From Lachnospiraceae bacterium (GTDB lineage Bacteria > Bacillota > Clostridia > Lachnospirales > Lachnospiraceae), in contig JAJPXU010000011.1 in assembly GCA_021205305.1 (NCBI GenBank), positions 10,553 to 74,552 on the forward strand: a stretch of DNA of 64,000 bases. The letters are read 5' to 3'. The notes beneath the pieces were generated by a model. That model worked only from the letters and a program-made list of their open reading frames with translations. It did not search any database and was not told where the DNA came from. Numbering within the stretch: position 1 is the first letter of the stretch; each line of letters opens with the position of its first letter. Below, in pieces: positions 22,203 to 36,527 of this stretch. The position numbers were made by a program, and so were the translations under genes.

Positions 22203-23765
22203 TCAATCCTCCAGTGACCGGAAATCGACATACCCCGTTGCCAGATCATCCGCGTAAATCAGATAGCTTCCGCCCTCCATGTTCAGATAGAGATACGGCA
22301 TCTCATCCACACGAACAATCCAGGCGACTGTAACCGTGACGGTCTCTCCTGCCAAAAGGTCGGTAATGTAATTGCTTCCGTTTGTTTCCTCTCCGCCGGC
22401 GGTATAATAGTCCATCGCATAGCCGCGGGGTATTGTCGCGTAATCCCAGTCACCCTCCTCAAGCGTGCTTCGGTCATAAATGGCTATCATGCCGTCCTCA
22501 TCCTCTGTCAGAGTGATCAGGTCTGCGTTATACAGAACATTGTGCAAGTCGGCCTCTCCGTTATTGGTATATTCAATGGTCGCGCAGATCAGCTTCTGTT
22601 CCGCTTCCTCCGTCTTTACCACGGTATTCAGAGAATTGACGCCGTCGCCTGCTTTCACGTAATCAATCTGCATCGGCAGCAGATTGCCGTCTTCGTCTGA
22701 ATACGTCTGCAGGTCATTGGTATAGATCCCGGAATCCAGTATGCTCTGCCAGTCGTCGCCCAAGGCGCTCATATTGTCTGACACCCAGACCCCGCTGACC
22801 CGGACACTGACCGTATGGAAAGACTCCTCATCTGCTTCACTATCCGAATAGGCAGATATCTCAAAGGAATCCCCGATCTGGTGTAGGTTTTCCTCCACAG
22901 CTGATGCTTCCACCGCCGTACAGGCGCCATCCTCCTCCGGATCATCGTCTATCTCTGGCAAATCATCTTCCTCGGGCAAGGCGTCCGCAAGGAGCGTTGT
23001 TTCTTCACTGCCGGTCACAATGAGTCCTTCCGCGACCGCAAGCAGCTCGTCCTTTGTCACTTTACCGCTCATTGAATAAATCCTGAGAATGCGCCAGACC
23101 TCCGGGTACAGGATATACAGCATCTGCGTCGTATTTTCAGAACCGTCATCCAGATACTCTTTTTCCAGCCAGACAGCGTAGTGACCGTTCAGCTCCAGTT
23201 CCTCGCTGTCCACCACATTGGTTTCCGAAATCTGCATTTCCGCGGGATTCTCACCCATGATCTCCTCTGCGATGCTGAAGCTTCCGCCCCAGAGATCGTC
23301 CTCGTAATCAATCTTCCAGCCGTCGTCGTACTGCACCATCCCCTCCGGGAGATAGGACGCTTCCACCGTCACACTTGCCGGAATCTCCTCCGGTACTTCC
23401 AGTTCGGCAAGCATCGCAGCCATCGAGCCTTCGGAGTCTGTCTCCGTCTCAGCTGAGCCGATGGTAATGTTTATTCCATAGTCTCCTTCTGTCTCTGTAA
23501 AAAACCGCGCTCGGATGGCAGTACCAGCCGCCACGGTCGTACACATGATGGCGGCAGCGGCGGCAACCAACAGAAACGTTTTTCCGGCCTTTTTCCGCCC
23601 TGTGCTTCTGCTTCGATTCTTTTGCGGATGCTCTGCCTTAGCATCGTCCAAATGCGCAGCGGAATGCGTTTCCACACTTATCTGCGATGCCACTTCACGC
23701 TCTATCATCGTTCGCATACTTTCCGGCATTTCCGGAAATTCTTCTCTCATATTTTCTAAGTTCAT
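22203..23765 (-). CDS. Membrane-anchored anti-sigma factor candidate with acidic extracellular region (DUF4367-like segment)
   Basis: Directly after the ECF sigma; short cytoplasmic N-terminus, one TM (FLLVAAAAAIMCTTVAAG), SYLPEGM motif. Confidence 0.65.
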   Translation of the reverse strand: MNLENMREEFPEMPESMRTMIEREVASQISVETHSAAHLDDAKAEHPQKNRSRSTGRKKAGKTFLLVAAAAAIMCTTVAAGTAIRARFFTETEGDYGINITIGSAETETDSEGSMAAMLAELEVPEEIPASVTVEASYLPEGMVQYDDGWKIDYEDDLWGGSFSIAEEIMGENPAEMQISETNVVDSEELELNGHYAVWLEKEYLDDGSENTTQMLYILYPEVWRILRIYSMSGKVTKDELLAVAEGLIVTGSEETTLLADALPEEDDLPEIDDDPEEDGACTAVEASAVEENLHQIGDSFEISAYSDSEADEESFHTVSVRVSGVWVSDNMSALGDDWQSILDSGIYTNDLQTYSDEDGNLLPMQIDYVKAGDGVNSLNTVVKTEEAEQKLICATIEYTNNGEADLHNVLYNADLITLTEDEDGMIAIYDRSTLEEGDWDYATIPRGYAMDYYTAGGEETNGSNYITDLLAGETVTVTVAWIVRVDEMPYLYLNMEGGSYLIYADDLATGYVDFRSLED

Positions 23766-23886
23766 AGATTACCTCTCAGTCTGTTTCTCTTTTTCACATG
23801 ATTTCCCTTGCTTCTAATCGCCAATTGCCCCTTCCCTGGCGTCCAATTCCTGTGATTCTATTTTACAGGCTGCGCTTTCAACCGTT

Positions 23887-24378
23887 CTACATGGATGCCA
23901 TGTCTGGAAAATCTCCCGTTTCCAGCTCCCTGCGCAGTCTTGCCTTTGCTCTCGAAAGGCGGCTTTTTACTGTATTTTCGTTCACTTCCAGAATGGATGC
24001 GATTTCCCGGATGCTGTAGCCCTCCATATAAAAAAGCGTTACGCAAATCCGCATTTCCTCAGGCAGAATTTCCAATGCCTCATACAAATCCGAGTAATCC
24101 CTTCCCGTTTCTTCCTGATCCGGCATGACCTGCTCCTCGATGGAAACCAGATGCTTCTGATTTCGCAAAATGTCATAGCATTCGTTAATCAGGATTCTGG
24201 TCAGCCATGTTTTCGCATACTCGTCCCTGCGGAGTGTGTGCAGCTTTGTAAAGGCGCTGACAATCGCTTCCTGTATCGCGTCTGCGCAGTCCGCATCCTC
24301 CCGCAGCAGAGTCTTTGCCACATGATACAGGGAATCCTCAGAAGCAAGGATCAGACGCCCCAATTGCTCTTTCGTCAT
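23887..24378 (-). CDS. ECF RNA polymerase sigma factor
   Basis: DCADAIQEA, WLTRILINECYD (region 2), YSIREIASILEVNENTVKSRLSRAK (region 4). Confidence 0.95.
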   Translation of the reverse strand: MTKEQLGRLILASEDSLYHVAKTLLREDADCADAIQEAIVSAFTKLHTLRRDEYAKTWLTRILINECYDILRNQKHLVSIEEQVMPDQEETGRDYSDLYEALEILPEEMRICVTLFYMEGYSIREIASILEVNENTVKSRLSRAKARLRRELETGDFPDMASM

Positions 24379-24449
24379 AAGTTTCGTTCCTCTCTGAACT
24401 TTTTTCTGTTTCGGTCATTCATGAATACCTTTATACCAGCTTACATTAT

Positions 24450-24478
24450 TTAGACGCACGAGAGGGCAAAAAAGTTCC
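24450..24478 (-). promoter_or_regulatory. ECF-type autoregulatory promoter
   Basis: GGAACT-16 nt-CGTCTAA on the minus strand, about 70 nt before the sigma start. Confidence 0.75.
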
Positions 24479-24705
24479 CTTTCGGCAAAAATTTTTCTGT
24501 TTCGTTTATAAAGAAAGAAGAACAGAAATGCAGCCCCCGCGGGTTTCAGAACCAACGTAGACTGCATTTTCTTAAATCAATGTTATTGTTGAAAGATCTT
24601 TTAAGCAGGCTCATAAAAGTCCTGCTGAACAACAAAAATATAAGGATAGATTTCTCTGGCTCCATCCGCTTTCTTATAAGACCTGGCCGATGTATCTAAA
24701 AAAAT

Positions 24706-24903
24706 TTATACATGATATATCACATAAACACCCACAATCACCAGCAGTACCGCTAACAACACGAAAAAAGCAATTTTCCCTGCGCGCTGTTTTCCTTTTG
24801 ACTTTTGTTCACCGGCATCCCGTTTTCTTTCATGCTCCAATGCATTTGTTTCCAAAGCCATATTTTGCATGATATTGTCTCTTCTTATTGGATTCATCCC
24901 CAT
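24706..24903 (-). CDS. Small single-TM protein, unknown function
   Basis: AGGAGGTG RBS; basic patch followed by a C-terminal hydrophobic helix. Confidence 0.6.
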   Translation of the reverse strand: MGMNPIRRDNIMQNMALETNALEHERKRDAGEQKSKGKQRAGKIAFFVLLAVLLVIVGVYVIYHV

Positions 24904-24920
24904 TATTCAAACACCTCCTG

Positions 24921-25055
24921 CTACACTGCCTCAGAATTATCTGATGATTCTTTGAAGAATTCCTGCAGCATTCTCGTTTTATCCACAAAATACGGCTTTT
25001 TTGTTTCACTCTCATAAAGCGAAAGCAACAACGGGTTATTCAAATAGTACCCCAT
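24921..25055 (-). pseudogene. 44-codon remnant resembling the N-terminus of AAA-ATPase-like (PD-(D/E)XK-associated) proteins
   Basis: Hand translation MGYYLNNPLLLSLYESETKKPYFVDKTRMLQEFFKESSDNSEAV*, GGAGGTG RBS; YLN...YFVDKT pattern recognised from memory. Confidence 0.6.
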
Positions 25056-25346
25056 ACTCTTACACCTCCATTCGCCTCTTGACGAGCATCACACTTTATA
25101 AAACATCATCACTGCTGTTGTCATTAATTATCATAGCACAGCAAGAGTAGGTATTCTACAAATATTTTTCTTATGATTTTCCTAATCCTCTTTTGCTTGC
25201 TACCAGAAGTTTAGTGATGCCTGTTGGATTACTACACTTCTTCCCGGGCATGTACAATTCCGGGGACGCCGCAATTCGTCTATACAACTACCTTTGTGGT
25301 CAATGGCATGGTTGCAATGCCGGAACAGTGAATATTGGTTCGTTTT

Positions 25347-26093
25347 TTATTCCATTCCAACCAGAAACCCGGCATCCGTCAGACTTTTCTCCGCAGCTTC
25401 AGCATTACCCTTCCCTTTTATCCGAAGCCAGACCAGATGCACAGATACAGAGCTTCCATAACCAGCGAGCCATGTGCGCATCTGAGCCGCATCCATATAG
25501 AGGCCGTCACCGGATACCAGACCGAGAAATTCCGCTGTATCCGCCGACGTATATCCGGAACCGCCTGAATTACCCGCTGAACCTGAGCTACCGGCAATAT
25601 TGGAAGCTTCCAATACGATCTGTGCCGTCAGGTTCTCGATAGATTCTGTCAAAATCTTCGATTGCCGTGCGGTAATCGCCGTTCCGTTTGCATCCGTCAT
25701 AGTGTTAAAAATTTCTTCCCCAACCAGAAGGAGCGGCGCAGAACCAAGCTTCTTTTCTCCGGTAGAGCGAACCAGTGTAAATGGAAATGTCTCCAGATCG
25801 ACTCCCATCAGGGTTATGGATATCTGCCAGTCTCCTACTGTCAGAGTGACTTCCGATTCCATAACGGTCCACAGTTCTTCAAAGCCGGCAAAACGGCTCA
25901 TGGATGTACACAGTTCTGTCGTAATCTCCTGTGAAGGCAGGCGGGCAGAAAAGATATATGTCTGCCGTTCCTGCCATTGTTCCAGTGCAAACTGTGCCAG
26001 GAGAAAAATCAGAGCAGCCGCTATGCCAGTCACGAAAACCACAGCGCTGACAAATGGCAGATATTTTCTTTTATTTGCTTTCCGTTTTGTCAT
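25347..26093 (-). CDS. Single-TM protein resembling the N-terminal/periplasmic part of a MacB-like ABC permease, possibly truncated
   Basis: One N-terminal TM, then ITLMGVD..FPFTLV..G..LLVGEE; no C-terminal TM bundle. Confidence 0.5.
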   Translation of the reverse strand: MTKRKANKRKYLPFVSAVVFVTGIAAALIFLLAQFALEQWQERQTYIFSARLPSQEITTELCTSMSRFAGFEELWTVMESEVTLTVGDWQISITLMGVDLETFPFTLVRSTGEKKLGSAPLLLVGEEIFNTMTDANGTAITARQSKILTESIENLTAQIVLEASNIAGSSGSAGNSGGSGYTSADTAEFLGLVSGDGLYMDAAQMRTWLAGYGSSVSVHLVWLRIKGKGNAEAAEKSLTDAGFLVGME

Positions 26094-26169
26094 GGCTTTC
26101 CATGTGCTTTCTTTTTCATGGTTTTATCTCCTATAAAAACGCCTATCGCAAAGTGATTCAAATTGGCAG

Positions 26170-26212
26170 CTCGCCATCGGGTGAAGTTCAATTCTAATCG
26201 GCAAGGTTCTCC
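26170..26212 (+). repeat. Degenerate family A palindrome overlapping the stop codon of the COG1361-like gene
   Basis: CTCGCCATCGGGTGAAGTTCAATTCTAATCGGCAAGGTTCTCC aligns with 28391-28430. Confidence 0.65.
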
Positions 26213-28233
26213 ATTCCTGCAAGCAGATCTTCCATCTGGCGGCTTTTTTTCGTGAGTTTCCAAATAAGCACTGCAATCAGAAGCAGAAAAAACAGAATCA
26301 TGATTACTATCGTCACTGCCCACCACTGGTTTGAAGTACTCTCTTCCTCTGCTTCAATGGAAAGTTCCACCACCTGCGGTGCTGCGATTGTTGTGGTAAA
26401 TTCCCGCGTATCGGTGTAAACTGTCCCGTAAGCATCCTCCCAGGTAAGAGTAAGCGTCCCTGTTGTGGAACCATATGCAGTCTCAGCATTAACATCATTG
26501 GCAGTGTCGGAGGCTTCTGTTCCCTGCGACGATTCATCTTTATCGTTTAAATTACTGACATAAATCTTAATCGTCCCATCGTTGGAAGTCCCTGCTTCCA
26601 TGTTTCCGGCATAAACCGTGTTCGTTGCGATCAGTCCGTCCGCTTCCAAAGATACCTGTACATTGTAAACCGGTCCGCGCCCGGTATTGCGAACCTCCAG
26701 TGTCGCCGTTACTGTCTCCAACGAATACACAGAATCGGACAGGTTAAAATTTTCGATGGAAACCTGCGTTTCCTGGCTGATGTCAAAAAACAGTTCTTCC
26801 GAATCGCTTAAGGACGTTCCGTCCGAAGTTTCATACACGAAAGAATAGTTTAAAGCAGCAATTTTTTGTGTCGCTGCGGCTGAAGCGGCAATCGTGTTTT
26901 CCAGCGTGATCACTTCCTGCGGGGCAATCTGATCATAATAGTAAGAGGTGGATGAAAGCGCAACATTCTCATCTGCTGTATTTACCGTGATTTTCAGACT
27001 ATACACGGTCTGGTCATCGCTCGTATTCTGGAAGCTTGTGATAAAATCCATCTGCTCCCCTGCCGGAAGCAAAGCTCCGCTAAGTGAGCATTCTTTCAGC
27101 AAAATATGCGGCTGGTGCTTCACCGCACTGCTGCTTGCACTGCCACTGTAACTGCTCCCGGAAGAATAATACGTCGTTACAGCTTCCATTTCTGTTTCAG
27201 ATTCTGTCTCCGTTTCGGATTCTGTCTCCGTTTCGGGTTCCGATTCTGACCCGGATTCTGTCTGAAACTCCGGCTCTGGTTCCGTAACAATCAGCGCGTC
27301 CGTCTCTGATTCTGGTTCCCAATTCGTTTCGCTCTCTGTCTGTTGCCGGGAATCGGATTCCAGGGTCACTGTCATCCGGCAGGTCATCTCAGATTTCACA
27401 CCGGAAGCAGAATAAGCGACCGCTTTCACTGTAACCGGATACTGCCCTGACTGGTAATCATCCGCAAGTGTAAATTCAGCTTGAAAGAGGTATGCGTCCA
27501 CGCTTTCCAAAGTACCGTCCAGATGCGAAGCATTTTCCTCAATGGATGGCACCTGATAAGTCAGTAAAAACACTTCCTCCTCATACTCCGCCTTTTCAAA
27601 AGGGGAATCCAGAGCAGATTCCACCGTTACCGTCAGCTTATTCTCCAATACCGGAGCATCTGCCACAAATGGAATTACAAGAGAAACCGTATTTTCTTTT
27701 ATCGATGGAACATATCCCTCTATATAAGATAATTCCATTCCTTCATACACATGATATACATCAATAGAAAGAGAAATCTGTGAAAATTCTGCCCCTGCAT
27801 CCGAATTTCCAGTGTCTGCATTTCCCATATCGTCAGCTACAGAAGCAATCGTGCCTGTTTCGTTATTATACATCGTGTTTTCCTGATTGGTTATCGATTC
27901 CAAAGCAGAATCCGGAATAGCGGAGGACGGCACCTCTTCCATGCTGTCGATTTGGAGAGCCTCGCCATTCTGAATCGAGCTCTGCTCGATGGCGAGGCCT
28001 TCGTCCTCGATTCTCTGCGAGAATCGGGACATGTTTTGGAGAGCCTCGCCATTCTGAATCGAGCTTTGCTCGATGGCGAGGCTCTCTGTTTCCTGCCCTT
28101 CCAGCACAACCGCTTCCTCAGCCAGTGCAATCCAGCGGAAAGATACTACGGCCGAAGCAAAAACAAGGACAGCCAAAAAAGCTGCAAGTATCCTGTATCG
28201 TATGGCATTCTTCTCGCTGCTCATATACCGCAT
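26194..28233 (-). CDS. COG1361-like surface protein (signal/TM, Ig-like domains, C-terminal TM)
   Basis: N-terminal hydrophobic leader, QPHILLK...NTG..PVYNVQV..GNMEAG motifs, C-terminal WWAVTIVIMILFFLLLIAVLIWK. Confidence 0.7.
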   Translation of the reverse strand: MRYMSSEKNAIRYRILAAFLAVLVFASAVVSFRWIALAEEAVVLEGQETESLAIEQSSIQNGEALQNMSRFSQRIEDEGLAIEQSSIQNGEALQIDSMEEVPSSAIPDSALESITNQENTMYNNETGTIASVADDMGNADTGNSDAGAEFSQISLSIDVYHVYEGMELSYIEGYVPSIKENTVSLVIPFVADAPVLENKLTVTVESALDSPFEKAEYEEEVFLLTYQVPSIEENASHLDGTLESVDAYLFQAEFTLADDYQSGQYPVTVKAVAYSASGVKSEMTCRMTVTLESDSRQQTESETNWEPESETDALIVTEPEPEFQTESGSESEPETETESETETESETEMEAVTTYYSSGSSYSGSASSSAVKHQPHILLKECSLSGALLPAGEQMDFITSFQNTSDDQTVYSLKITVNTADENVALSSTSYYYDQIAPQEVITLENTIAASAAATQKIAALNYSFVYETSDGTSLSDSEELFFDISQETQVSIENFNLSDSVYSLETVTATLEVRNTGRGPVYNVQVSLEADGLIATNTVYAGNMEAGTSNDGTIKIYVSNLNDKDESSQGTEASDTANDVNAETAYGSTTGTLTLTWEDAYGTVYTDTREFTTTIAAPQVVELSIEAEEESTSNQWWAVTIVIMILFFLLLIAVLIWKLTKKSRQMEDLLAGMENLAD
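27952..28082 (-). repeat. In-frame A-B-A palindromic repeat mosaic inside the coding sequence
   Basis: Two 47-nt copies (27952-27998, 28036-28082; one mismatch, 84-nt offset) encode LAIEQSSIQNGEALQ twice around a CGATTCTC-GCA-GAGAATCG hairpin. Confidence 0.9.
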
Positions 28234-28313
28234 CCTCCTTCTTTCCTTTCAGCACTTTCCACGGGTACGTTCCTCTGTCTGATTTTCTATTCTTTCTGTA
28301 ATCTTTCTCATTA

Positions 28314-28430
28314 CATGTCCATGATTTGCGAAGCAAATCATGAACGAAGGCAATGTTCCGATTTTCGCAGAAAATCGAGAACGGTACCGAGCCATCGAGC
28401 GAAGCTCGATTTATAATGGCGAGGCTCTCC
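28314..28430 (+). repeat. Intergenic B-B-A palindromic mosaic
   Basis: ATGATTTGC-GAA-GCAAATCAT, CGATTTTC-GCA-GAAAATCG, ATCGAGC-GAA-GCTCGAT...ATGGCGAGGCTCTCC. Confidence 0.85.
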
Positions 28431-29061
28431 GCATCACGCCGCCATCCATCTCAAACACCCGGTCGCAAAGGATACGAATATCCTCACTGTTATGACTCGC
28501 AAGCAGGATTGTTTTTCCCTTTTGCTTCTGGGCAAGCAGCAGTCTGCGAATCTCCGCAACGCCATGGCGGTCAAGACCGTTAAACGGTTCATCGAGGATC
28601 AGAAGCTCCGGCTCTTCCATAATCGCCTGCGCAATGCCCAGCCGCTGCCGCATCCCCAGTGAATATTTTGCGACCGGCTTTTTCAATTCTGGATCAAGGC
28701 CGACACGCATAAGAACGGACGTGATTTCCTTTCTTCCGATCTGTCCACGCAAATCCGCCAGAATTTCCAGGTTTCTCCGCCCGCTTAAATTAGAAAGGAA
28801 TCCCGGTGTCTCGATGATCACCCCAAGGCTCTCCGGAAAGTCTACATCATAGCCAATCCGTTTCCCGCCAACTGTGATCTGCCCTTCCGTCACCGGCAGA
28901 AAACCGCAGATGCATTTCATGAGAACCGTTTTTCCGGAGCCATTGTTCCCACAGATACCGTAAGTCCTGCCCCGTTCCACTGCAAAATCCAGAGGTTTTA
29001 ACACTTCCTCCGCGCCAAAACATTTTCGCACATGGCGCAGCTGAATATAATAATCTGTCAT
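28411..29061 (-). CDS. ABC transporter ATP-binding protein (BcrA/LanF-like export type)
   Basis: Walker A GNNGSGKT, signature YSLGMRQRLG, Walker B LLILDEP, ASH; start MTDYYI. Confidence 0.93.
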   Translation of the reverse strand: MTDYYIQLRHVRKCFGAEEVLKPLDFAVERGRTYGICGNNGSGKTVLMKCICGFLPVTEGQITVGGKRIGYDVDFPESLGVIIETPGFLSNLSGRRNLEILADLRGQIGRKEITSVLMRVGLDPELKKPVAKYSLGMRQRLGIAQAIMEEPELLILDEPFNGLDRHGVAEIRRLLLAQKQKGKTILLASHNSEDIRILCDRVFEMDGGVMRRASPL

Positions 29062-29185
29062 AATTTTTTCACTCCCTCCCGTTGCTTCCCTGTGTCTTTT
29101 ACGAAAATTTTTCTCATATCCATTTCTGTCTTTTTTACTCGTTTTCCTGCGATTAATCATTTCTTTCACAGTTACATTTTTTCTT

Positions 29186-29914
29186 TTATATCTCTCTCAA
29201 CTCCCATTTCAGCACGATCCAGTGCAGCACGGCACAGAATAACGCGAGTAAAAGCAGAAACATCCAGAGCCCCATCTGGTTGCTTCCCCAGTCATTTTCT
29301 GCCATAATCCATTCCGTTGGGTCAATGCAGTAAAGCGCTTCAAAATAACGCTCCCGCAGGATGATGCAGGCATACCATAAAAGAAAAGGAACGCCGAACG
29401 CCAGATACACGCTGCCGCCAAGGGCACCGGCAACTGCGGAAAGACTGGCAAGCGATGAAGCCGAAAGCAGGATGCGTCCCAGCGTGGCAAGCAAAGTAAA
29501 AATCGTACTCATCGGCCAGTTCCACAGTGCTTCGCGGCTGAAAAAAAGCAAAAAAAAGAAAAGCCCCGCGAAAAATGCCCCCAAAAACCAGACAATCGCT
29601 CCGGAAAGCGCGGTCGTCACCACCTTGTCCAGACAGTAAACCGCTTTGCTCCGACGAATAATCAGGAAGCGCAAAAAACGGGAATCCTTTTCCCGCAGAT
29701 ACTCCTCTCCGCAGGGCAGGACGGCAGCGAGCGGCAAAATAAAAAGCACGGTCTGAGACTGCAGGGAACTGTTCAGCAGCTCCAGAAAGGTACCGCAAGC
29801 CAGAGGCGAATCTTTTTTCGTCTCCGGCCAGACGGTTCCGGCTATGATAGCCGCCACGGAAAGCAGCACCGCCAGATAGAATTTTTTCTCATGCAGCATT
29901 CTGGTAAAATCCAT
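29186..29914 (-). CDS. ABC-2-type membrane subunit (putative)
   Basis: About six hydrophobic segments; adjacent to the ATPase. Confidence 0.7.
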   Translation of the reverse strand: MDFTRMLHEKKFYLAVLLSVAAIIAGTVWPETKKDSPLACGTFLELLNSSLQSQTVLFILPLAAVLPCGEEYLREKDSRFLRFLIIRRSKAVYCLDKVVTTALSGAIVWFLGAFFAGLFFFLLFFSREALWNWPMSTIFTLLATLGRILLSASSLASLSAVAGALGGSVYLAFGVPFLLWYACIILRERYFEALYCIDPTEWIMAENDWGSNQMGLWMFLLLLALFCAVLHWIVLKWELREI

Positions 29915-31564
29915 CTAATACCCCAGACTGCGGTCGATGATCGTGCCGTCCGCCGCATTAATCGTCAGGAAGCTATTGCCCGGATAATCAATATAGCTCG
30001 TATATTCTACTCCATCGTATGTACTGTGTGTTTCCTCGCTTCCGAAGAAATCCCACACCGGCACAAGCGTTCCGCTGCGGCTGTCCGCGCCCGGATCATA
30101 GATGCGCATATATCCAAGAGTGACTTCTGTAATTTCCAGACTTGCGGAATCCTCGTAGCTGTCTGTGTGCTGGATCACGATCATCTGCTCAAATATTTCT
30201 GCTATTTCGGAGAAAGAAAGCATATCCACGTTCTCATACTTCTTTTCTCCGACCTCGTACAGATTCTGAATCTCTGCTTCCTGCAGGCCATCTGCATTCA
30301 CAATAAAGGTCACTAATTCATAGCACCACGGTTCCGTCGTGCTTTCCATGGATTCCAGTCCGCCGCCCTCTTTCATCTCGTAGGTAACGGGGATCCCGTC
30401 GAGTGTCCGTGTGTAAACAATGTACCAGCCTCCGTCGATGCAGCTTGCCGTGTACGTATATGATGTAAAGAGATCACTCTCCAGGCTCCGCCACGCATGC
30501 GTCGTGAAGCCCACAGAGAATTCGTCAGACAGCCCCAGCTGCTCCATATACGTGTCTGTAACTGCGATTGCCTCCTCCACCGTGATTCCCGCCAGTTCCT
30601 CACACTTCTCCTGCGTTGGTCGATAAGCATTGGAAGCATAAGCTTCTGAATCGTAGCAGGTTTCCTTCCAGCTGACATTCTCTGCCAGCTCTTCCTTATC
30701 AGCATAGCGGGAAATTTTAATCGACATCGGTGTAGGGGATGAACTCTTCAAAATATAGGAAAAAAGACCGTCCTCCGTTTCCACGAATCCGTTAAAATAA
30801 CCTTCATAGTACACCGTGTTTCCATTCTCATCCTCGTAAGAGGTTACGCCAAAACCGGGCGTGACTTCCGTCTTTTCCACCGTTTCCGGAGCTTCCGCAT
30901 AAACCTGCTCCCACTCATCAATCTCTTCCTGAAGGTTGAAGATATCATCCTCCGTGACAGACCCATCCTCAAATGCGCCGCTTTCTCTTGCAGCTTCGAT
31001 ATAACCGTATGGATCTGTATTGCCCTCCGCTTGATACTCCTTCAGCTCATTTAGTTTCTCCAATGCCTCTGTCTTTGTCGTCTGATAGTAATAAGCATAA
31101 TCGTAAACCGGGTTTTCTCCGAAAAAAGCTTCAGTTACCAGGTCAATAAATTCCTGAGTGAATTCCATCTGAGAAACCGAGTAAACCGGCACCTGTGAGA
31201 CATCCGGCACCTCAACCATAGCGTTGTTACTGGTCATAGTGAAGCTTCCGTCGGATGTGGAGGCTGCCGCGGTGTAGGTGTCCGGCACGCCAAGGCGGGT
31301 GGCGAGGACATTTTCAGCATTACCGCTAACGGTATCTTCCTGGTCAATGCTTCCTGTGTCCGGTTCATCCTCTAACGATACTTCAACTCCAGAAACATTC
31401 TGCGTCTCACCCGTCTCTTCAGATGAACCGTCATCCGCCTCACGGTAATTATCCTGACTCTGGCTTCCCTTCTGCCGCACAATGCTGCTATCCGGTGTGG
31501 CAGCGCAGCCCGATAACAACATTGCGCTAAGCAACAGGGCAAGGTAACGTCTTCTATTTTTCAT
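29915..31564 (-). CDS. Acidic lipoprotein (DUF6034-like)
   Basis: Lipobox LLSGC; C-terminal LVPVWDFFG...LTINAADGTIIDRSLGY. Confidence 0.75.
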   Translation of the reverse strand: MKNRRRYLALLLSAMLLSGCAATPDSSIVRQKGSQSQDNYREADDGSSEETGETQNVSGVEVSLEDEPDTGSIDQEDTVSGNAENVLATRLGVPDTYTAAASTSDGSFTMTSNNAMVEVPDVSQVPVYSVSQMEFTQEFIDLVTEAFFGENPVYDYAYYYQTTKTEALEKLNELKEYQAEGNTDPYGYIEAARESGAFEDGSVTEDDIFNLQEEIDEWEQVYAEAPETVEKTEVTPGFGVTSYEDENGNTVYYEGYFNGFVETEDGLFSYILKSSSPTPMSIKISRYADKEELAENVSWKETCYDSEAYASNAYRPTQEKCEELAGITVEEAIAVTDTYMEQLGLSDEFSVGFTTHAWRSLESDLFTSYTYTASCIDGGWYIVYTRTLDGIPVTYEMKEGGGLESMESTTEPWCYELVTFIVNADGLQEAEIQNLYEVGEKKYENVDMLSFSEIAEIFEQMIVIQHTDSYEDSASLEITEVTLGYMRIYDPGADSRSGTLVPVWDFFGSEETHSTYDGVEYTSYIDYPGNSFLTINAADGTIIDRSLGY

Positions 31565-31657
31565 AATGCTCCCCTTTCAATGCAGCAGTAACTGCCTTAC
31601 GTTTTCTTCTTACGATCACAGTATATCAGGAAAGATGTTGCCAAGTCCTTGCCAAGT

Positions 31658-31678
31658 TGTAACCAAATTGTAAACGTT
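31658..31678 (-). promoter_or_regulatory. Candidate OmpR-family operator upstream of the lipoprotein/ABC operon
   Basis: TGTAACCAAATTGTAAACGTT, identical to 35014-35034; 33 nt from a TATACT -10 (31620-31625). Confidence 0.75.
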
Positions 31679-31700
31679 ATAGGCGAATCAGATTTCACTT

Positions 31701-32630
31701 TCACGTCCCCAAAAACGTAAAGTTATACTTCTTCACCGCCCTCCAGGAAATGATAATTCCAGCTGCCAGTATTCCTCCAAAAATCAGCAGAGACTGCGCG
31801 ATGGACGGCAGGTTGTCATATCCGAAATCATGCATCCCATAGACCGCGTTGTTCAGCGGACTGATCCAGCCGACAATGCTGCGGACACGATAGAGCTCCC
31901 AGGTCTCAAACCCCAGTATTTTCCCTAATACATCCGGGTCGAGCAGAAATCCATACAGGCTGTAAAGCAGAGCAAAAAACATCCCTGCCTTTTTTCCGAA
32001 CAGCAGATTGCCCGGCAGAATCAGAAATCCAAGCGTCAGGCTGTAAGCAAACATCAGCAGTGCAACCTGCGCCATACAGCCGATGGGGGTAATGCTCTCC
32101 ATTACCTTGACGGTAGATGGAACATTCAGCTGATCGCCTAAAGAGGAATATCCAAGGATGGCCGCCGTCTCACTCCACAGATCTCCTGTGTAGGAATATT
32201 TCATGCAGAGCACGACTGTGACAATCAGGATAAAGAGAATGTACAGCGCTGTGCAGAGCATGATATAGAGCAGCTGCGAAATCAGCCAGCGGCTTTTCGT
32301 TGTCCGCATCAGGTGAAACGGCGTAAATGGCGTCAGCTTCGGCAGATCAGAAAACAAAAAGATCAGAAGCATAGAAATCAGCAGAATTGCAGTAGAATCA
32401 CCGAATGTCCAGATAAATGGCTCCGCTGCCTGCATGGTTGTCCCGTAATATTCAGCCACCTCTGTGACACGGCTGCTCAGCAAAAAACAGAGCACTACGC
32501 CGAAAAGGAAGAGGATGATTGTCCTCGGGTTTCGGAAAAAACCGAGGAAGCAGCAGCGTGTGGCAGAAAGTATCTGGTGAGCCTTCCCTCTAAAGTTTAA
32601 CCCTTTCCTCTCATTTTGTTTGAAAAACAT
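31701..32630 (-). CDS. Second ABC-2-type membrane subunit (putative)
   Basis: About six TM segments; LIFLFSDLP...MRTTKSRW pattern; 5' end overlaps the kinase stop. Confidence 0.7.
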   Translation of the reverse strand: MFFKQNERKGLNFRGKAHQILSATRCCFLGFFRNPRTIILFLFGVVLCFLLSSRVTEVAEYYGTTMQAAEPFIWTFGDSTAILLISMLLIFLFSDLPKLTPFTPFHLMRTTKSRWLISQLLYIMLCTALYILFILIVTVVLCMKYSYTGDLWSETAAILGYSSLGDQLNVPSTVKVMESITPIGCMAQVALLMFAYSLTLGFLILPGNLLFGKKAGMFFALLYSLYGFLLDPDVLGKILGFETWELYRVRSIVGWISPLNNAVYGMHDFGYDNLPSIAQSLLIFGGILAAGIIISWRAVKKYNFTFLGT

Positions 32631-34200
32631 TCCACCTCACCCCAATCCGGCTGCCTTCTCCCGGCACGCTTTGCACTTCCATCCTGCCGCCATGCAGTCT
32701 GGCAATCTGCGCACACAAAGCCAGTCCCAGTCCAGCACCGCCTTCCCGGCGTGTTCTGGCTTTATCCGCCATGTAAAATGGTTCCAGAATCTTTTCCTGT
32801 TCCTCCGATGCGACGCCGCAGCCCTCATCCTGAACAAACAACCCTTCCGGAGAAGCAATCAATGTAATGGTGCTGCCCTGCGGGCTGGCTTTCCTTGCAT
32901 TGTCAATCAGATTGGTCAGCAAAGAGAGCAGCAAATCCTCATCTCCGGTGACAATCAGGGAAGAATCCTTTTGCAGCGGCCCGCTTCCCGATCGCTCCAA
33001 CTGCTCCGCATCGTTTTGATTTGGCGCGTCCTGAATCATAAATCGCAGCAAAATCTCTTTTTCCTCCAGTCGTTTCTGAACGATGTCTTTTGCTTTCGAG
33101 AAAAGTGTTTCAACGGAAATATCCTGCGATTCGATATCGGATTCATCCGACAGGTCAATCAATTGAAGCATTTTTACGGACAGGCGTGAAAGCCGCCGGC
33201 TTTCCTGCTCGATATAATTCAGCGCAGACACCTGACGTTCCGGGGAAAGCGAAACGCGCTGCAGCAGCTCCGCATATCCCTGAATGCTGGTCATCGGTGT
33301 CTTCAGTTCATGGGAAAGCGCGCCGAGCAGCATTCGCTGTTTCTCATTCATTTGGGCTAATGTCCGGATATGTTCGTCCACATTCTCTGCCATGCGATTG
33401 AAGGCCAGTGCGATTTCCGTGACTTCATCTTCCTTTTTTCCTGTGTTCCTCTTCAACAGAACACGTCCTTCATACTGTCCATCCGCAATGACATTGGCCG
33501 CGTCCTTCAACTGATAAAGCGGCGCAAAAAGTCTGCGTATAATCAGAGTCAGTGCGCATCCCAAAATCACCGCAAGAACCAGCGAAACAAGGATTCCGCG
33601 CACAAAAAGAAGCCTGCTTTCCCGGAAAACAGCTGTGACATCGCGATAATGCAAAAGGGCAAATCCATTTTCTGAACGATACGAAGCTTCCTCTATGTAA
33701 GTAACCACAAGAATACTCCCGTTTACCCTGGCAAGATAGGCGGCAGTGTCATTGAAATGGTACGCACTGGAGAGCGCATATTTCTCGTACTTTTCATCAA
33801 GAGGCGTCCCCGCTTCCAGGTCAAACTCATAGGGTGTGCTGTTCACAAGTATCTCGCCATCATAATAAAGTACAGCATCCGTACTGTAGGAGCTCAGGAA
33901 AACAGACCGCGCCGCGGCCGGTATCCAGCGGTCGTCCGTGATGCCAAGCTTTGAAAGCTGCTTCGAAAAAGCGCTCATATCAGAAGAAAGTGCCGTCTGT
34001 TCATCTCCAAGCACAACACCAATCATCCGCATCTGCGTCTCATACAGGTTCCAGATGGAAAAAATCTGAGATAATACAAGAAGCAGCAGCGCTGACACGA
34101 CTGATAGTTTTGTTCTTAAAAGCCACCCTGGGCGAACAGGCCTGGAATGAACAGCATTTCCTGCCTCTGGATGAAGCGGATCTGTATTTTCGCGTCTCAT
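32611..34200 (-). CDS. HAMP-domain sensor histidine kinase
   Basis: Two TMs, HAMP, HELKTP H-box, NLIDNARK, DEGCG, GLGL. Confidence 0.95.
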   Translation of the reverse strand: MRRENTDPLHPEAGNAVHSRPVRPGWLLRTKLSVVSALLLLVLSQIFSIWNLYETQMRMIGVVLGDEQTALSSDMSAFSKQLSKLGITDDRWIPAAARSVFLSSYSTDAVLYYDGEILVNSTPYEFDLEAGTPLDEKYEKYALSSAYHFNDTAAYLARVNGSILVVTYIEEASYRSENGFALLHYRDVTAVFRESRLLFVRGILVSLVLAVILGCALTLIIRRLFAPLYQLKDAANVIADGQYEGRVLLKRNTGKKEDEVTEIALAFNRMAENVDEHIRTLAQMNEKQRMLLGALSHELKTPMTSIQGYAELLQRVSLSPERQVSALNYIEQESRRLSRLSVKMLQLIDLSDESDIESQDISVETLFSKAKDIVQKRLEEKEILLRFMIQDAPNQNDAEQLERSGSGPLQKDSSLIVTGDEDLLLSLLTNLIDNARKASPQGSTITLIASPEGLFVQDEGCGVASEEQEKILEPFYMADKARTRREGGAGLGLALCAQIARLHGGRMEVQSVPGEGSRIGVRWNVFQTK

Positions 34201-34216
34201 GTATCAGCCTCCTCAC

Positions 34217-34885
34217 TCATTGGGAATTTAGTCGGTAACCGATGCGGGGCACAGTCTGAATCACATCCTGGAAATCCAGTTTTTTCCGCAGTCTCGCAAT
34301 ATGCACATCAATCGTGCGCGTCTCGCCGTCAAAATCCACACCCCACAGCGCATTGATCAGCTGTTCACGACTGAGAGCGATGTTTTTATATTTCACAAGC
34401 TGTAGCAGACAGTCAAATTCCATTGGTTTCAGAGAAATCTCCCTTCCTGCTTTCGTTACCCGCCGCTCCTCCGGAAAAATCTCGACATCCCGCACCACGA
34501 AGATTTCCGCCTCCTTTCGGTACCGCGCCAGCACTTTTTCCACACGCACAAGCAGCTCCAGCATTTCAAACGGCTTAACGATATAGTCCTCCGCCCCGTC
34601 CTTTAAGCCATGAATCTTGCTGTTCAGGTCGCCCTTAGCCGTCAGAAAAATCACCGGAATTTTCAATGCGCGCAACTGGGGTAGCAGCGCGAAACCGTCT
34701 TTACCCGGAAGCATGACATCCAGGAGTGCCAGATCGATCCACGGATTCTTCTCGTCATGAAGCCATACACTGACCGCATCGCCGTCCCAGAATGGCATCG
34801 GCTCATACCCCGCCGTCTCCAGATTGATACAAATCAGTTCATTGATTGCCGCCGAATCCTCAATGACCAGTATTCTTTCTTTCAT
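34217..34885 (-). CDS. OmpR-family response regulator
   Basis: ILVIED, LLDVMLP, FLTAK, KPF, winged helix RTIDVHIARLRKK, GYRL; start MKERIL. Confidence 0.96.
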   Translation of the reverse strand: MKERILVIEDSAAINELICINLETAGYEPMPFWDGDAVSVWLHDEKNPWIDLALLDVMLPGKDGFALLPQLRALKIPVIFLTAKGDLNSKIHGLKDGAEDYIVKPFEMLELLVRVEKVLARYRKEAEIFVVRDVEIFPEERRVTKAGREISLKPMEFDCLLQLVKYKNIALSREQLINALWGVDFDGETRTIDVHIARLRKKLDFQDVIQTVPRIGYRLNSQ

Positions 34886-35013
34886 ATACACACACGCTTC
34901 CCCAATAAATAAATTTTGGCAGGAACGCAGCTGTTCGTTTTTCACAATTTCAAACAAACTGCTTTCCTGCCATTTACTATAATACGGGCTGGCTTGTTTT
35001 TCAATGGATGGGA

Positions 35014-35034
35014 TGTAACCAAATTGTAAACGTT
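35014..35034 (-). promoter_or_regulatory. Candidate autoregulatory operator upstream of the response regulator
   Basis: Same 21-mer as 31658-31678; 33 nt from a TATAGT -10 (34976-34981), with TTGAAA -35 at 34998-35003. Confidence 0.75.
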
Positions 35035-35138
35035 TTTTATCACACCAGTCTGATCTTTATACTCTTTTTTCCCTGGCTGCTTATATAATAAGGCCGAACA
35101 TCAATCTATAAAGTAAGCACAAAGAAGTTCCATAGTTG

Positions 35139-36527
35139 TCAGTTGGAAACTCCCCGCATTGGCTCCCGGAAGATCCTTCCCAGCAAAATCACAGCCGCAA
35201 TCGCCAGCACAAGCTCTGCACAGGGCTGGGCGTAGGCAAGCCCGTACAGCGGCCAGAGCCAGTTCAGCAAAAACAATGCCGGTATCTCCAGCACGACCTT
35301 CCTCAAAATAGCAAATACCAGCGACTTTCTCCCCATGCCGCAGGCCTGAAAGACTCCGACTGCCAGGAAATCGACATTCAAAAAAACCAGTTCCAGACAC
35401 ATTCCCTGAAGGAAACGGCTGCCATAGGTGACCACCTCTTCATTTTTCATAAACAGGCGAATCAGACCCTCGGAGCCCGCAAAATATACTACAGTCATCA
35501 GCAGCATAAATGTCACGCTGATTTTCGCGGTAAAGGTAATCGCCTTTTTCATACGCTCCCGGTTCCCGCTGGCATAATTGTAGCCGACCAGCGGCATAAT
35601 GCCCTGTGAAACGCCCATCGCGATATACATGGGAATCATATTGATTTTCTGGGTGATCCCCATCGCGGCAACCGCATTGGAGCCGTAGGAAGCAGTAAAG
35701 TTATTCAGCACCGTCATGCTGGTCACGTTCAGCAGATTCTGAATCGCGGCAGGCACGCCGACCGCGCAGATTCCTTTGAGAATCGCGGAGTCAAAAGAAA
35801 ACATGCGCGGGTTCACACACACCAGCGTCTTCCTGCGGCGCACCCACAGCAGGACAAAAAAGTAAATACAGGCCACACAGTTGGAAAGAAAGGTAGCCAG
35901 TCCCGCACCGGCTGCCCCCATACCAAACCCCGTGGGCAGGATAAAGATCGGATCCAGCACAATATTCAGCAGACAGCCGCTCATGGTTCCGATGCTGGCA
36001 TGAAGGGAGGCTCCCTCCGAGCGCACCAGATTGGCCAGCACGACATTCAGGATCGCCGGAACCGCGCCGCACAGAGTCGTCCAGCGAAGGTACTGCCAGG
36101 CAGCCGCCTCGGTATCACTGGTGGTTCCCAGAATTCCCAGCAGCTGTGCGTGGAAAATGCCGGCCATCAGTGAAAATAAAACAGAAAAAGCGAGAGCACA
36201 ATAAAAGCTGATCGCAGAGCTTTTTCGCACCGATTCGTACTCTTTTTTCCCAAGATAGCGGCTCATCAGGCTGGAGCCGCCAACCCCGAACAGGTTAATG
36301 ATGGCGTTAAACGCCAGCAGCACCGGCGCAGCCAGTGTGACCGCGGCATTTTCGACGGGATCGTTTAACATGCCCACAAAATACGTGTCCGCCAGGTTAT
36401 AGATCACCATGACAAGAGAACTAAGTACCGTGGGAACCGCCATTTTCATGACCGCCCGCGGAATCGGCGTCCGCTCAAACAACTCGACTTTCTGTTCTTC
36501 TATTGACTGTTCTTTTTCGTCAGGCAT
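35139..36527 (-). CDS. MATE-family efflux transporter
   Basis: MAVPTVLSSLVMVIYNLADTYFVG, LNIVLDPIFI, GAAGAGLAT; about 12 TMs. Confidence 0.95.
   Translation of the reverse strand: MPDEKEQSIEEQKVELFERTPIPRAVMKMAVPTVLSSLVMVIYNLADTYFVGMLNDPVENAAVTLAAPVLLAFNAIINLFGVGGSSLMSRYLGKKEYESVRKSSAISFYCALAFSVLFSLMAGIFHAQLLGILGTTSDTEAAAWQYLRWTTLCGAVPAILNVVLANLVRSEGASLHASIGTMSGCLLNIVLDPIFILPTGFGMGAAGAGLATFLSNCVACIYFFVLLWVRRRKTLVCVNPRMFSFDSAILKGICAVGVPAAIQNLLNVTSMTVLNNFTASYGSNAVAAMGITQKINMIPMYIAMGVSQGIMPLVGYNYASGNRERMKKAITFTAKISVTFMLLMTVVYFAGSEGLIRLFMKNEEVVTYGSRFLQGMCLELVFLNVDFLAVGVFQACGMGRKSLVFAILRKVVLEIPALFLLNWLWPLYGLAYAQPCAELVLAIAAVILLGRIFREPMRGVSN

Follow-up and report, generated by a model that had tools for sequence, protein, structure and literature searches.

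The lantibiotic-type systems LanRK/LanI/LanFEG (NisRK/NisI/NisFEG for nisin, SpaRK/SpaI/SpaFEG for subtilin and the orphan CprABC-CprRK of Clostridioides difficile) combine an autoregulated two-component system of the OmpR type, which acts on a repeat box present at two promoters, with an operon that is headed by a lipoprotein gene and that codes for an ATP-binding cassette (ABC) transporter of the ABC-2 class, made of a single ATPase and a pair of small, dissimilar membrane subunits; they can occur without biosynthetic genes. The cassette that we describe here consists of eight genes, all on the minus strand of a 64,000-nucleotide stretch of the genome of a gut Lachnospiraceae bacterium (positions 10553-74552 of contig JAJPXU010000011.1, assembly GCA_021205305.1; the whole of this stretch is referred to as the window), and it appears to share this layout. 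By analogy, it most likely works as a lantibiotic-type, LanRK/LanFEG/LanI-like inducible defence. We favour, with some reserve, the view that it is a self-contained, positively autoregulated cassette for envelope sensing and export, whose function is an inducible defence.

Parts of the cassette also resemble other systems. PmtCD (PDB 6xjh, 9q2n; PMC7527219, PMC12623860) exports phenol-soluble modulins in Staphylococcus aureus; passages of PMC12623860 present it as an exporter of type V, which clears amphipathic peptides and also has a protective effect on the membrane. In Bacillus and Staphylococcus, the WalRK genes precede those of the accessory outer proteins YycH and YycI. According to passages of PMC9210968, WalRK is essential and present in all Firmicutes, and the Wal operons are not autoregulated.

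The regulatory part of the cassette is defined by a 21-mer, TGTAACCAAATTGTAAACGTT on the plus strand, which occurs without any mismatch at 31658-31678 and 35014-35034. Its reading on the coding (minus) strand is AACGTTTACAATTTGGTTACA, that is, a direct repeat TTACA-N6-TTACA with a period of 11 bp, and at both promoters it is followed by 9 nucleotides (nt), the -35 position, 17 nt and the -10 hexamer. The initial annotation of this DNA had pointed out the identical 21-mer, the OmpR-type TTACA repeat with its 11-bp spacing and the fixed distance to the -10 hexamer; the match is indeed exact, and the repeat is conserved at both positions in orthologous cassettes. The 33 nt that it gave for this distance is the value counted from base to base, the last base of the box being separated from the -10 hexamer by 32 intervening nt at both promoters. 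The -35 hexamer is good at the promoter with box 1 (TTGAAA) and weak at the promoter with box 2 (GGACTT).

The window contains no third copy of the 21-mer with up to 3 mismatches (such matches were found in none of 100 shuffled sequences), and the whole draft genome (3.12 Mb in 173 contigs) contains no further copy within 4 mismatches. The bare pattern TTACA-N6-TTACA is found nine times in the genome, two of these instances being the boxes of the window. With a position weight matrix that was trained on 15 distinct sites (all of which score at least 19.6 bits), both window boxes score 28.5 bits, versus 17.6 bits for the next-best site of the whole genome. The genome-wide scan for which the initial annotation had called therefore returns two copies only; neither the mismatch scan nor the matrix scan of the draft genome gave a third site that would widen the regulon. 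The 21-mer does not originate from a segmental duplication, because the flanks on either side of it differ between the two copies, the identity ending sharply at the 21-mer, and because its core is kept between genera.

The latter observation comes from the comparison with related cassettes: nine close relatives (from Lachnospiraceae metagenome-assembled genomes (MAGs), with lipoproteins 82-99% identical) and a distant one; complete loci that were found through homologues 36-50% identical, namely L012 (ACCL02000008) from Marvinbryantia formatexigens DSM 14469 and L014, L016, L017 and L018 from metagenome or MAG contigs; and L034 and L035, which belong to two other genera of the same family and were added by genome searches. 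In the close relatives, the upstream flanks have diverged, in contrast to a 17-nt core of the box which does not vary at either position. The two-site layout is present in seven of the eight two-component cassettes examined (L012, L014, L016, L017, L018, L034 and L035); the regulators of these seven share 61-75% identity with that of the window. The exception is the most distant cassette, L010 (regulator 58% identical), which has the lipoprotein-side box only. Across genera, the box on the regulator side is followed by 9 nt, TTGAAA, TTGTAA or TTGCAA, 17 nt and a -10 hexamer; on the lipoprotein side, the two spacings (9 and 17 nt) are the same, and the hexamer between them is a weak -35 that resembles GGACTT and in which GAC is conserved. 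Two promoters depart from this scheme: that of the L035 regulator, where ~22 nt instead of 32 separate the box from the -10 hexamer, and that of the L034 lipoprotein, which has no clear -10 hexamer. In L014, L016, L018 and L035, the second box is located within the last codons (3' end) of the kinase gene. The 12-19 kb around each of the seven cassettes contain exactly two sites of at least 19.7 bits and none between 15 and 19.7 bits; one of these sites, in front of the regulator gene of L034, was recovered although it was absent from the training set. No site of 15 bits or more is found in the sister ABC loci that are devoid of this two-component system (L029-L033).

Since this layout recurs across genera and the box is absent from the ABC loci that lack the regulator, the box is very probably the operator of the cassette's own regulator, and the regulon very probably consists of these two promoters only, so that the two units that had been delimited by the box in the initial annotation would form one self-contained regulon. 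The predicted proximal half-site, which ends near -45 and abuts the -35 hexamer, sits where activators of the OmpR/PhoB family bind. The good -35 hexamer of the regulator promoter suggests that there is a basal expression and a positive feedback, and the poor -35 hexamer of the lipoprotein promoter suggests that the latter depends on an activator.

The genes are arranged as a regulator, a kinase and a membrane protein (34957-31701), a lipoprotein, a membrane protein and an ATPase (31564-28411) and two surface or membrane proteins (28233-25347), a description that had already been given in the initial annotation and that matches the gene calls. We refer to the four proteins that have no usual name by their length, as M309, M242, S679 and T248. 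All eight genes are orthologous to their counterparts in L012 and L014, and the outward-facing parts of the cassette are those that evolve the fastest (table).

Features of the cassette (positions in the window), the basis of each assignment, and the identity of each protein to its L012 and L014 orthologues (BLASTP)
Feature	Position	Strand	Basis or description	Identity to L012/L014
Box 1	35014..35034	-	promoter of the regulator operon; then 9 nt, TTGAAA (35004-34999), 17 nt, TATAGT (34981-34976)	
OmpR/PhoB-family response regulator	34217..34957	-	Pfam Response_reg and Trans_reg_C	67-75%
Sensor histidine kinase	32611..34200	-	two membrane helices, HAMP (PF00672), HisKA (PF00512), HATPase_c (PF02518)	39-47%
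M309, predicted type V (ABC-2) exporter membrane subunit, 309 aa	31701..32630	-	fold model; no Pfam family	57-71%
Box 2	31658..31678	-	promoter of the effector (lipoprotein) operon; 22 nt after the M309 stop; then 9 nt, GGACTT (31648-31643), 17 nt, TATACT (31625-31620)	
DUF6034 lipoprotein, 549 aa	29915..31564	-	PF19499, lipobox LLSGC	40-45%
M242, polytopic membrane protein, presumed second transporter subunit, 242 aa	29186..29914	-	5-6 hydrophobic segments; no Pfam family	42-58%
ABC ATPase	28411..29169	-	PF00005	76-80%
Structured spacer	28234..28410	-	three hairpins, between the ATPase and S679 genes	
S679, acidic surface protein, 679 aa	26194..28233	-	N- and C-terminal hydrophobic anchors, CARDB-like region(s)	34-35%
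T248, single-pass protein with N-terminal anchor, 248 aa	25347..26093	-	MacB-like outer domain	32-39%

The reading frame of the regulator opens at TTG 34957, and its likely start is ATG 34885, which gives a protein of 222 amino acids (aa), as in the orthologues. It has both domains of the family (PF00072, E 1.1e-19; PF00486, E 6.1e-23) and a phospho-acceptor Asp in the motif LLDVMLP; its nearest solved structures are MtrA, PhoP and RegX3. The kinase has the H-box LSHELKTP and, between its two helices, an outer domain of ~160 aa (residues ~44-202) which diverges faster than the rest of the protein (18-37% identity, versus 43-56% for the cytoplasmic part). The two-component system therefore has the domains of the OmpR/PhoB type together with a predicted direct-repeat operator next to the -35 hexamer.

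The motifs of the ATPase are intact (Walker A GNNGSGKT, signature YSLGMRQR, Walker B LLILDEP), and its nearest solved relatives are the nucleotide-binding domains of ABCA3/4/1, PmtC, NosF and Rv1218c (with E values of 8.8e-43 for ABCA3, 8.9e-34 for PmtC and 6e-31 for NosF). The AlphaFold2 model of M309, which was obtained with 29 homologues (predicted local distance difference test (pLDDT) 80.5, predicted template-modelling score (pTM) 0.84), is best matched in Foldseek by PmtD (template-modelling (TM) scores 0.55/0.63), NosY, Wzm and the membrane domains of ABCG5/8, with a probability of 1.0. Considering the nucleotide-binding domain and the modelled membrane fold, the ATPase and M309 are assigned as components of a type V exporter (the ABC-2/ABCA-ABCG-Wzm class), in agreement with the export module proposed in the initial annotation. 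The M309 family is large and unusually conserved (more than 1548 clusters, 57-73% identical). Neither M309 nor M242 nor T248 matches any Pfam or NCBIfam family, even at E 10, and searching the PDB by sequence and by profile with these three proteins and with S679 gave no match. The reading frame of the ATPase runs 36 codons upstream of the start of the orthologues (MTDYY..., ATG 29061, ~216 aa), which corresponds either to a basic N-terminal extension or to a gap of ~124 nt after the M242 gene.

In the cassettes compared, the M242 gene always adjoins the M309 and ATPase genes, except that M309 is relocated in the window lineage. M242 is presumed to be the second membrane subunit, considering its size, its hydrophobic segments and this constant adjacency. 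The idea that it is a paralogue of M309 was rejected, since neither BLASTP nor hhalign gave any signal. Because no similarity of M242 to M309 or to a known permease could be detected, it is from the gene order that we infer a heterodimer of two subunits. The M242 gene is intact in the window; in the close relatives L001:9723-10450 and L004:9771-10500 it is split into two overlapping frames, which results from a frameshift or from an assembly error.

In L012, L014, L016-L018, L034 and L035, the gene order is regulator, kinase, DUF6034, M309, M242, ATPase, S and T, while in L010 and in two cassettes of other families M242 precedes M309. Three arrangements of the membrane subunits are thus seen: DUF6034-M309-M242, M242-M309, and that of the window lineage, where M309 is behind the kinase (31701-32630, to be compared with L012:9715-10596, L010:5227-6123 and L032:9438-10334) and its gene overlaps the kinase stop by 20 nt. 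Given the order in other genera, it is the window lineage that has moved the M309 gene behind the kinase gene, as a result of which the genes of its transporter subunits are split over two transcription units. The initial annotation was right about a membrane protein at this position; its "permease" is more precisely a relocated transporter subunit, whose gene follows that of the lipoprotein in other genera. Likewise, the "surface proteins" that it had placed after the ATPase are present, and the existence of orthologues in all cassettes shows that they are conserved members of the cassette rather than passengers.

The acidic lipoprotein of 549 aa that had been noticed at the outset is indeed very acidic (107 D+E versus 28 K+R), and the lipobox residue Cys20 is invariant across 39 homologues. 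It matches PF19499 over the entire length of the model (positions 1-481 of 481; E 1.5e-80, 271.9 bits versus a cut-off of 27). A structural model built with 39 homologues (pLDDT 82, pTM 0.79) is matched in Foldseek by 5coz, which is an uncharacterised protein of Eubacterium rectale (E 2e-11), by YycH (9a5d_B, in the WalK-YycH model; E 1e-5) and by YycI (2o3o; E 9e-5), with global TM-scores of 0.2-0.5, so that the likeness exists at the level of domains only. The locus L033, from another family of Clostridia, is informative in this respect. Two tandem pairs of BlaI and of BlaR1(M56)::DUF6034 (L033:10954-17154) are located there directly upstream of an operon coding for M242, M309, the ATPase, a second ATPase, S and an FtsX-type protein, each BlaI repressor gene being followed by that of a BlaR1 (peptidase M56) protein whose C-terminal outer part is a full-length DUF6034 domain. 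This position of BlaR1 normally carries the sensor domain. Because of this fusion in the sensor position, and of the gene order regulator-kinase-DUF6034, we consider that a role of the lipoprotein in ligand sensing or co-sensing is more likely than that of a pure LanI-like shield; the latter idea stays alive because of the strong acidity of the protein and because its gene is the first of the induced operon. Two DUF6034 genes are found in tandem in L018:2608-5845, which shows that the lipoprotein gene can duplicate within the operon.

S679 has an N-terminal signal or anchor, a C-terminal membrane anchor and, at about residues 290-350, an acidic stretch of low complexity that is rich in E, T, S and P; it also has one or more beta-sandwich regions of the CARDB-like kind, CARDB being matched in 4 of 10 orthologues (best E 1.9e-5). 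The T248 family has ~130 representatives, nearly all of 220-260 aa. A shallow profile of T248 gave no signal against MacB-type permeases; only a deeper one, of 77 sequences, gave a moderate signal, in which hhalign aligned the T248 outer domain to the periplasmic core of the L033 permease, which is of the MacB/FtsX type (probability 52%, E 1.5e-4), and PF12704 is matched by four of these 77 family members. T248 has one helix only and lacks the FtsX bundle, hence it is not itself a MacB-type (type VII) permease. L032 and L033 have a full MacB-type permease, with a second ATPase, at the corresponding gene positions, which is why we propose, with moderate support from these comparisons, that T248 may be a reduced MacB-type derivative.

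The spacer that precedes the S679 gene (177 nt) folds into three consecutive hairpins, one of which is a perfect 10-bp palindrome, CATGATTTGC-TTC-GCAAATCATG; its minimum free energy is -59.9 kcal/mol (z -3.6). It is restricted to the window lineage: the close relatives also have a gap here, and the ATPase and S679 genes overlap in distant cassettes. Such a structure could be an element for processing, stability or attenuation. No Rfam element is matched at 24000-36000.

The cassette was found in 9 of 300 genomes drawn evenly from the class (~2-3%), a patchy distribution of the accessory type. Strong matches to DUF6034 and strong matches to M309 occur in the same six of these 300 genomes, in which the two genes are adjacent, hence a strict co-occurrence. 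Inspection of the neighbourhood of the window cassette revealed no gene for the synthesis of a bacteriocin or of a glycan, which confirms the absence of biosynthetic genes that had been stated in the initial annotation; the neighbours code for a MATE protein, a nitroreductase, PanE, an extracytoplasmic function (ECF) sigma/anti-sigma pair and housekeeping proteins. The genes of this pair, an ECF-type sigma factor (163 aa) followed by a DUF4367 protein of 520 aa which is likely the anti-sigma factor, are at 22203-24378 (-), ~1 kb downstream of the cassette; L016 likewise has a sigma factor and a DUF4179 protein beside its cassette. In the close relative L006, the genes of M309, M242, the ATPase and most of S679 have been lost, and those of the regulator, the kinase and DUF6034 are kept (L006:479-560, L006:9692-15380); a nucleotidyltransferase-like gene is preceded there by a second, divergent version of the lipoprotein promoter, whose box has 3 mismatches.

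How does the cassette compare with the described systems? The likeness to LanFEG/LanI or BcrAB modules that had been proposed in the initial annotation holds for the layout, and it does not hold for the membership of the families, as judged with the curated LanFEG models. The best NCBIfam family of the ATPase is indeed the lantibiotic-protection subfamily TIGR03740, but the score (172 bits) is below the cut-off (309.75), and neither M309 nor M242 matches a LanE/LanG (MutE/MutG) model. LanI proteins have 165-245 aa. The lipoprotein of the cassette, contrary to these, is a DUF6034 protein of 549 aa whose modelled fold is YycH/YycI-like, and no LanI was among the fold matches. The box TTACA-N6-TTACA is neither a nis box nor a spa box, and the cassette has two additional conserved surface proteins, S679 and T248. 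Regarding PmtCD, PmtD is the best structural match of M309, with a sequence identity of ~15% only; however, PmtCD is of the homodimeric type and serves the cell's own peptides, and it works without a lipoprotein, without surface partners and without a two-component system of its own that uses this box.

The order of the genes of the regulator, the kinase and an accessory outer protein is also that of WalRK-YycH/YycI, to which the domain-level fold matches of DUF6034 and the agreement of the box with TGTWAH-N5-TGTWAH also point. The cassette is nevertheless not WalRK: the scores are far below the cut-offs of the models (148 bits versus 725 for WalK, NF033092; 136 versus 340 for YycF, NF040534), the distribution is patchy (9 of 300 genomes), and the predicted autoregulation is unlike what is reported for the Wal operons. 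Moreover, the putative accessory protein of the cassette is anchored by a lipid and has no membrane helix, and the regulation is directed at a single ABC operon, not at cell-wall hydrolases. The BlaI/BlaR1 (MecI/MecR1) systems are evoked by the DUF6034 domain in sensor position in the sister locus L033, but the window cassette has neither M56 protease nor BlaI, and combines instead a free DUF6034 lipoprotein with a two-component switch. With NosDFYL and MacB/LolCDE, the cassette shares the NosY and NosF matches, the presence of a lipoprotein and outer partners beside an ABC unit, and the MacB-like domain of T248; it differs from NosDFYL in having no NosD-like beta-helix protein, no NosL and no NosZ, and from MacB/LolCDE in that T248 has no FtsX bundle and that there is no second ATPase. 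A BceRS-BceAB module is recognised by an FtsX-type permease that has ~10 helices and a large outer domain, and by a kinase of the intramembrane-sensing kind, which is devoid of an outer domain. The cassette is not one of these modules, since it contains no FtsX domain and its kinase has an outer domain of ~160 aa.

In the mechanism that we propose, the kinase, probably together with DUF6034 which would act outside the cell as a ligand-binding co-sensor, would detect a signal from the outside or from the envelope. The phosphorylated regulator would then bind both boxes as a head-to-tail dimer centred near -52, and recruit RNA polymerase. At the regulator promoter, this binding would amplify the basal level and boost the operon (including M309 in the window lineage). 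At the lipoprotein promoter, where the regulator would be needed, it would switch on the operon that codes for the lipoprotein, M242, the ATPase, S679 and T248. The type V exporter and the two surface proteins would remove or fend off a membrane-active compound, like LanFEG or PmtCD do. Several observations speak against such an export defence. Neither the ATPase nor either membrane protein passes the curated models of the LanFEG families, and M242 could not be related to M309 or to any permease that is known. The likeness of the lipoprotein to YycH and YycI is at the domain level only (Foldseek probability 1.0 but TM-scores of 0.2-0.36), and YycH and YycI work through their own membrane helices, which the lipid-anchored lipoprotein does not have. 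The box fits the WalR consensus, so another regulator could in principle read it. Finally, the substrates of type V ABC systems can also be glycans or lipids (Wzm/Wzt), and some of these systems drive work outside the cell (NosDFY); peptide defence is therefore only one of the options.

The last point leads to the main rival of the export defence, to which we give a rather low probability: the cassette would be a machine for surface assembly or mechanotransmission, in which the type V unit exports an envelope component, such as a lipid or a polymer linked to a lipid, or powers DUF6034, S679 and T248 outside the membrane like NosDFYL or MacB/LolCDE do, and which the two-component system tunes to the state of the envelope. 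That the best fold matches of M309 include NosY and Wzm, and that NosF is one of the nearest solved relatives of the ATPase, is in line with this idea, as are the three conserved outward-facing proteins of the cassette, the complete MacB/FtsX unit and second ATPase of the sister cassettes, and the fact that T248 retains only the MacB-like outer domain. However, no gene for a glycosyltransferase, a polymerase or lipid synthesis is present in or beside any cassette examined, a core envelope function would not usually be confined to ~2-3% of the genomes sampled from the class, and the coupling to BlaI/BlaR1 or to an autoregulated two-component system is typical of inducible resistance. A different possibility concerns DUF6034, which in an arrangement of the LanI type would be a surface shield that sequesters the toxic compound (like NisI and SpaI) and passes it to the exporter, the kinase sensing by means of its own outer domain only. 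Several features are compatible with a shield: the DUF6034 gene heads the induced operon and immediately precedes those of the exporter; the protein is strongly acidic, as is expected for the binding of cationic peptides; it is strictly linked to the exporter and not to a particular type of regulator; and tandem paralogues exist in L018. We find it improbable nonetheless, considering that the DUF6034 of L033 occupies the exact place of the BlaR1 sensor domain, that the fold matches are accessory proteins of kinases and not LanI proteins, and that in all two-component cassettes outside the window lineage the DUF6034 gene comes immediately after that of the kinase, an order that is also seen in walK-yycH-yycI.

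It may also be asked whether the box is read by another regulator, such as the WalR-type regulator of the genome, or whether it is a neutral relic of a promoter duplication, the regulator of the cassette acting elsewhere. The plus-strand sequence TGTAAC-N5-TGTAAA fits the Bacillus WalR consensus TGTWAH-N5-TGTWAH, as it is given in passages of PMC9210968, and an identity over 21 nt is somewhat longer than a minimal operator of two half-sites. The other observations make either idea very unlikely: the box exists only in cassettes that have an orthologous regulator, and it is missing from the sister ABC cassettes that are under BlaI/BlaR1; it is found nowhere else in the genome, whereas the WalR regulon has many targets; the flanks of the 21-mer differ between the two copies, and from genus to genus they diverge whereas the core is kept; lastly, the same passages of PMC9210968 describe the Wal operons as not autoregulated. 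Returning to the export defence, we mention a broader and more speculative reading, which we hold only tentatively. DUF6034 could be a plug-in outer receptor that feeds two unrelated switches (the kinase here, the BlaR1 protease in L033), both of which would control one and the same undescribed envelope machine of gut Clostridia, made of the very conserved M309-M242-ATPase engine, the CARDB surface protein and the MacB-derived T248, that captures and expels a membrane-active compound. The relocation of M309 could then place a subunit of the transporter in the sensing complex, as is the case of BceB for BceS.

None of the papers searched mentions DUF6034, PF19499, EUBREC_2869 or BRYFOR_07007. 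Whereas the regulatory logic of the cassette is ordinary and clearly readable, its effector machinery is unstudied: five of the eight protein families (DUF6034, M309, M242, S679 and T248) have no known function. Gut Lachnospiraceae live amid bacteriocins, host peptides and bile, and to our knowledge their inducible envelope defences have hardly been studied. Since there is one box at two promoters and no other target, the cassette would provide a clean reporter for any screen of inducers, and a cultured organism that carries it, Marvinbryantia formatexigens DSM 14469, is at hand. The link of DUF6034 to kinases and to sensors of the BlaR1 type gives a testable idea about the role of a large family of orphan lipoproteins.

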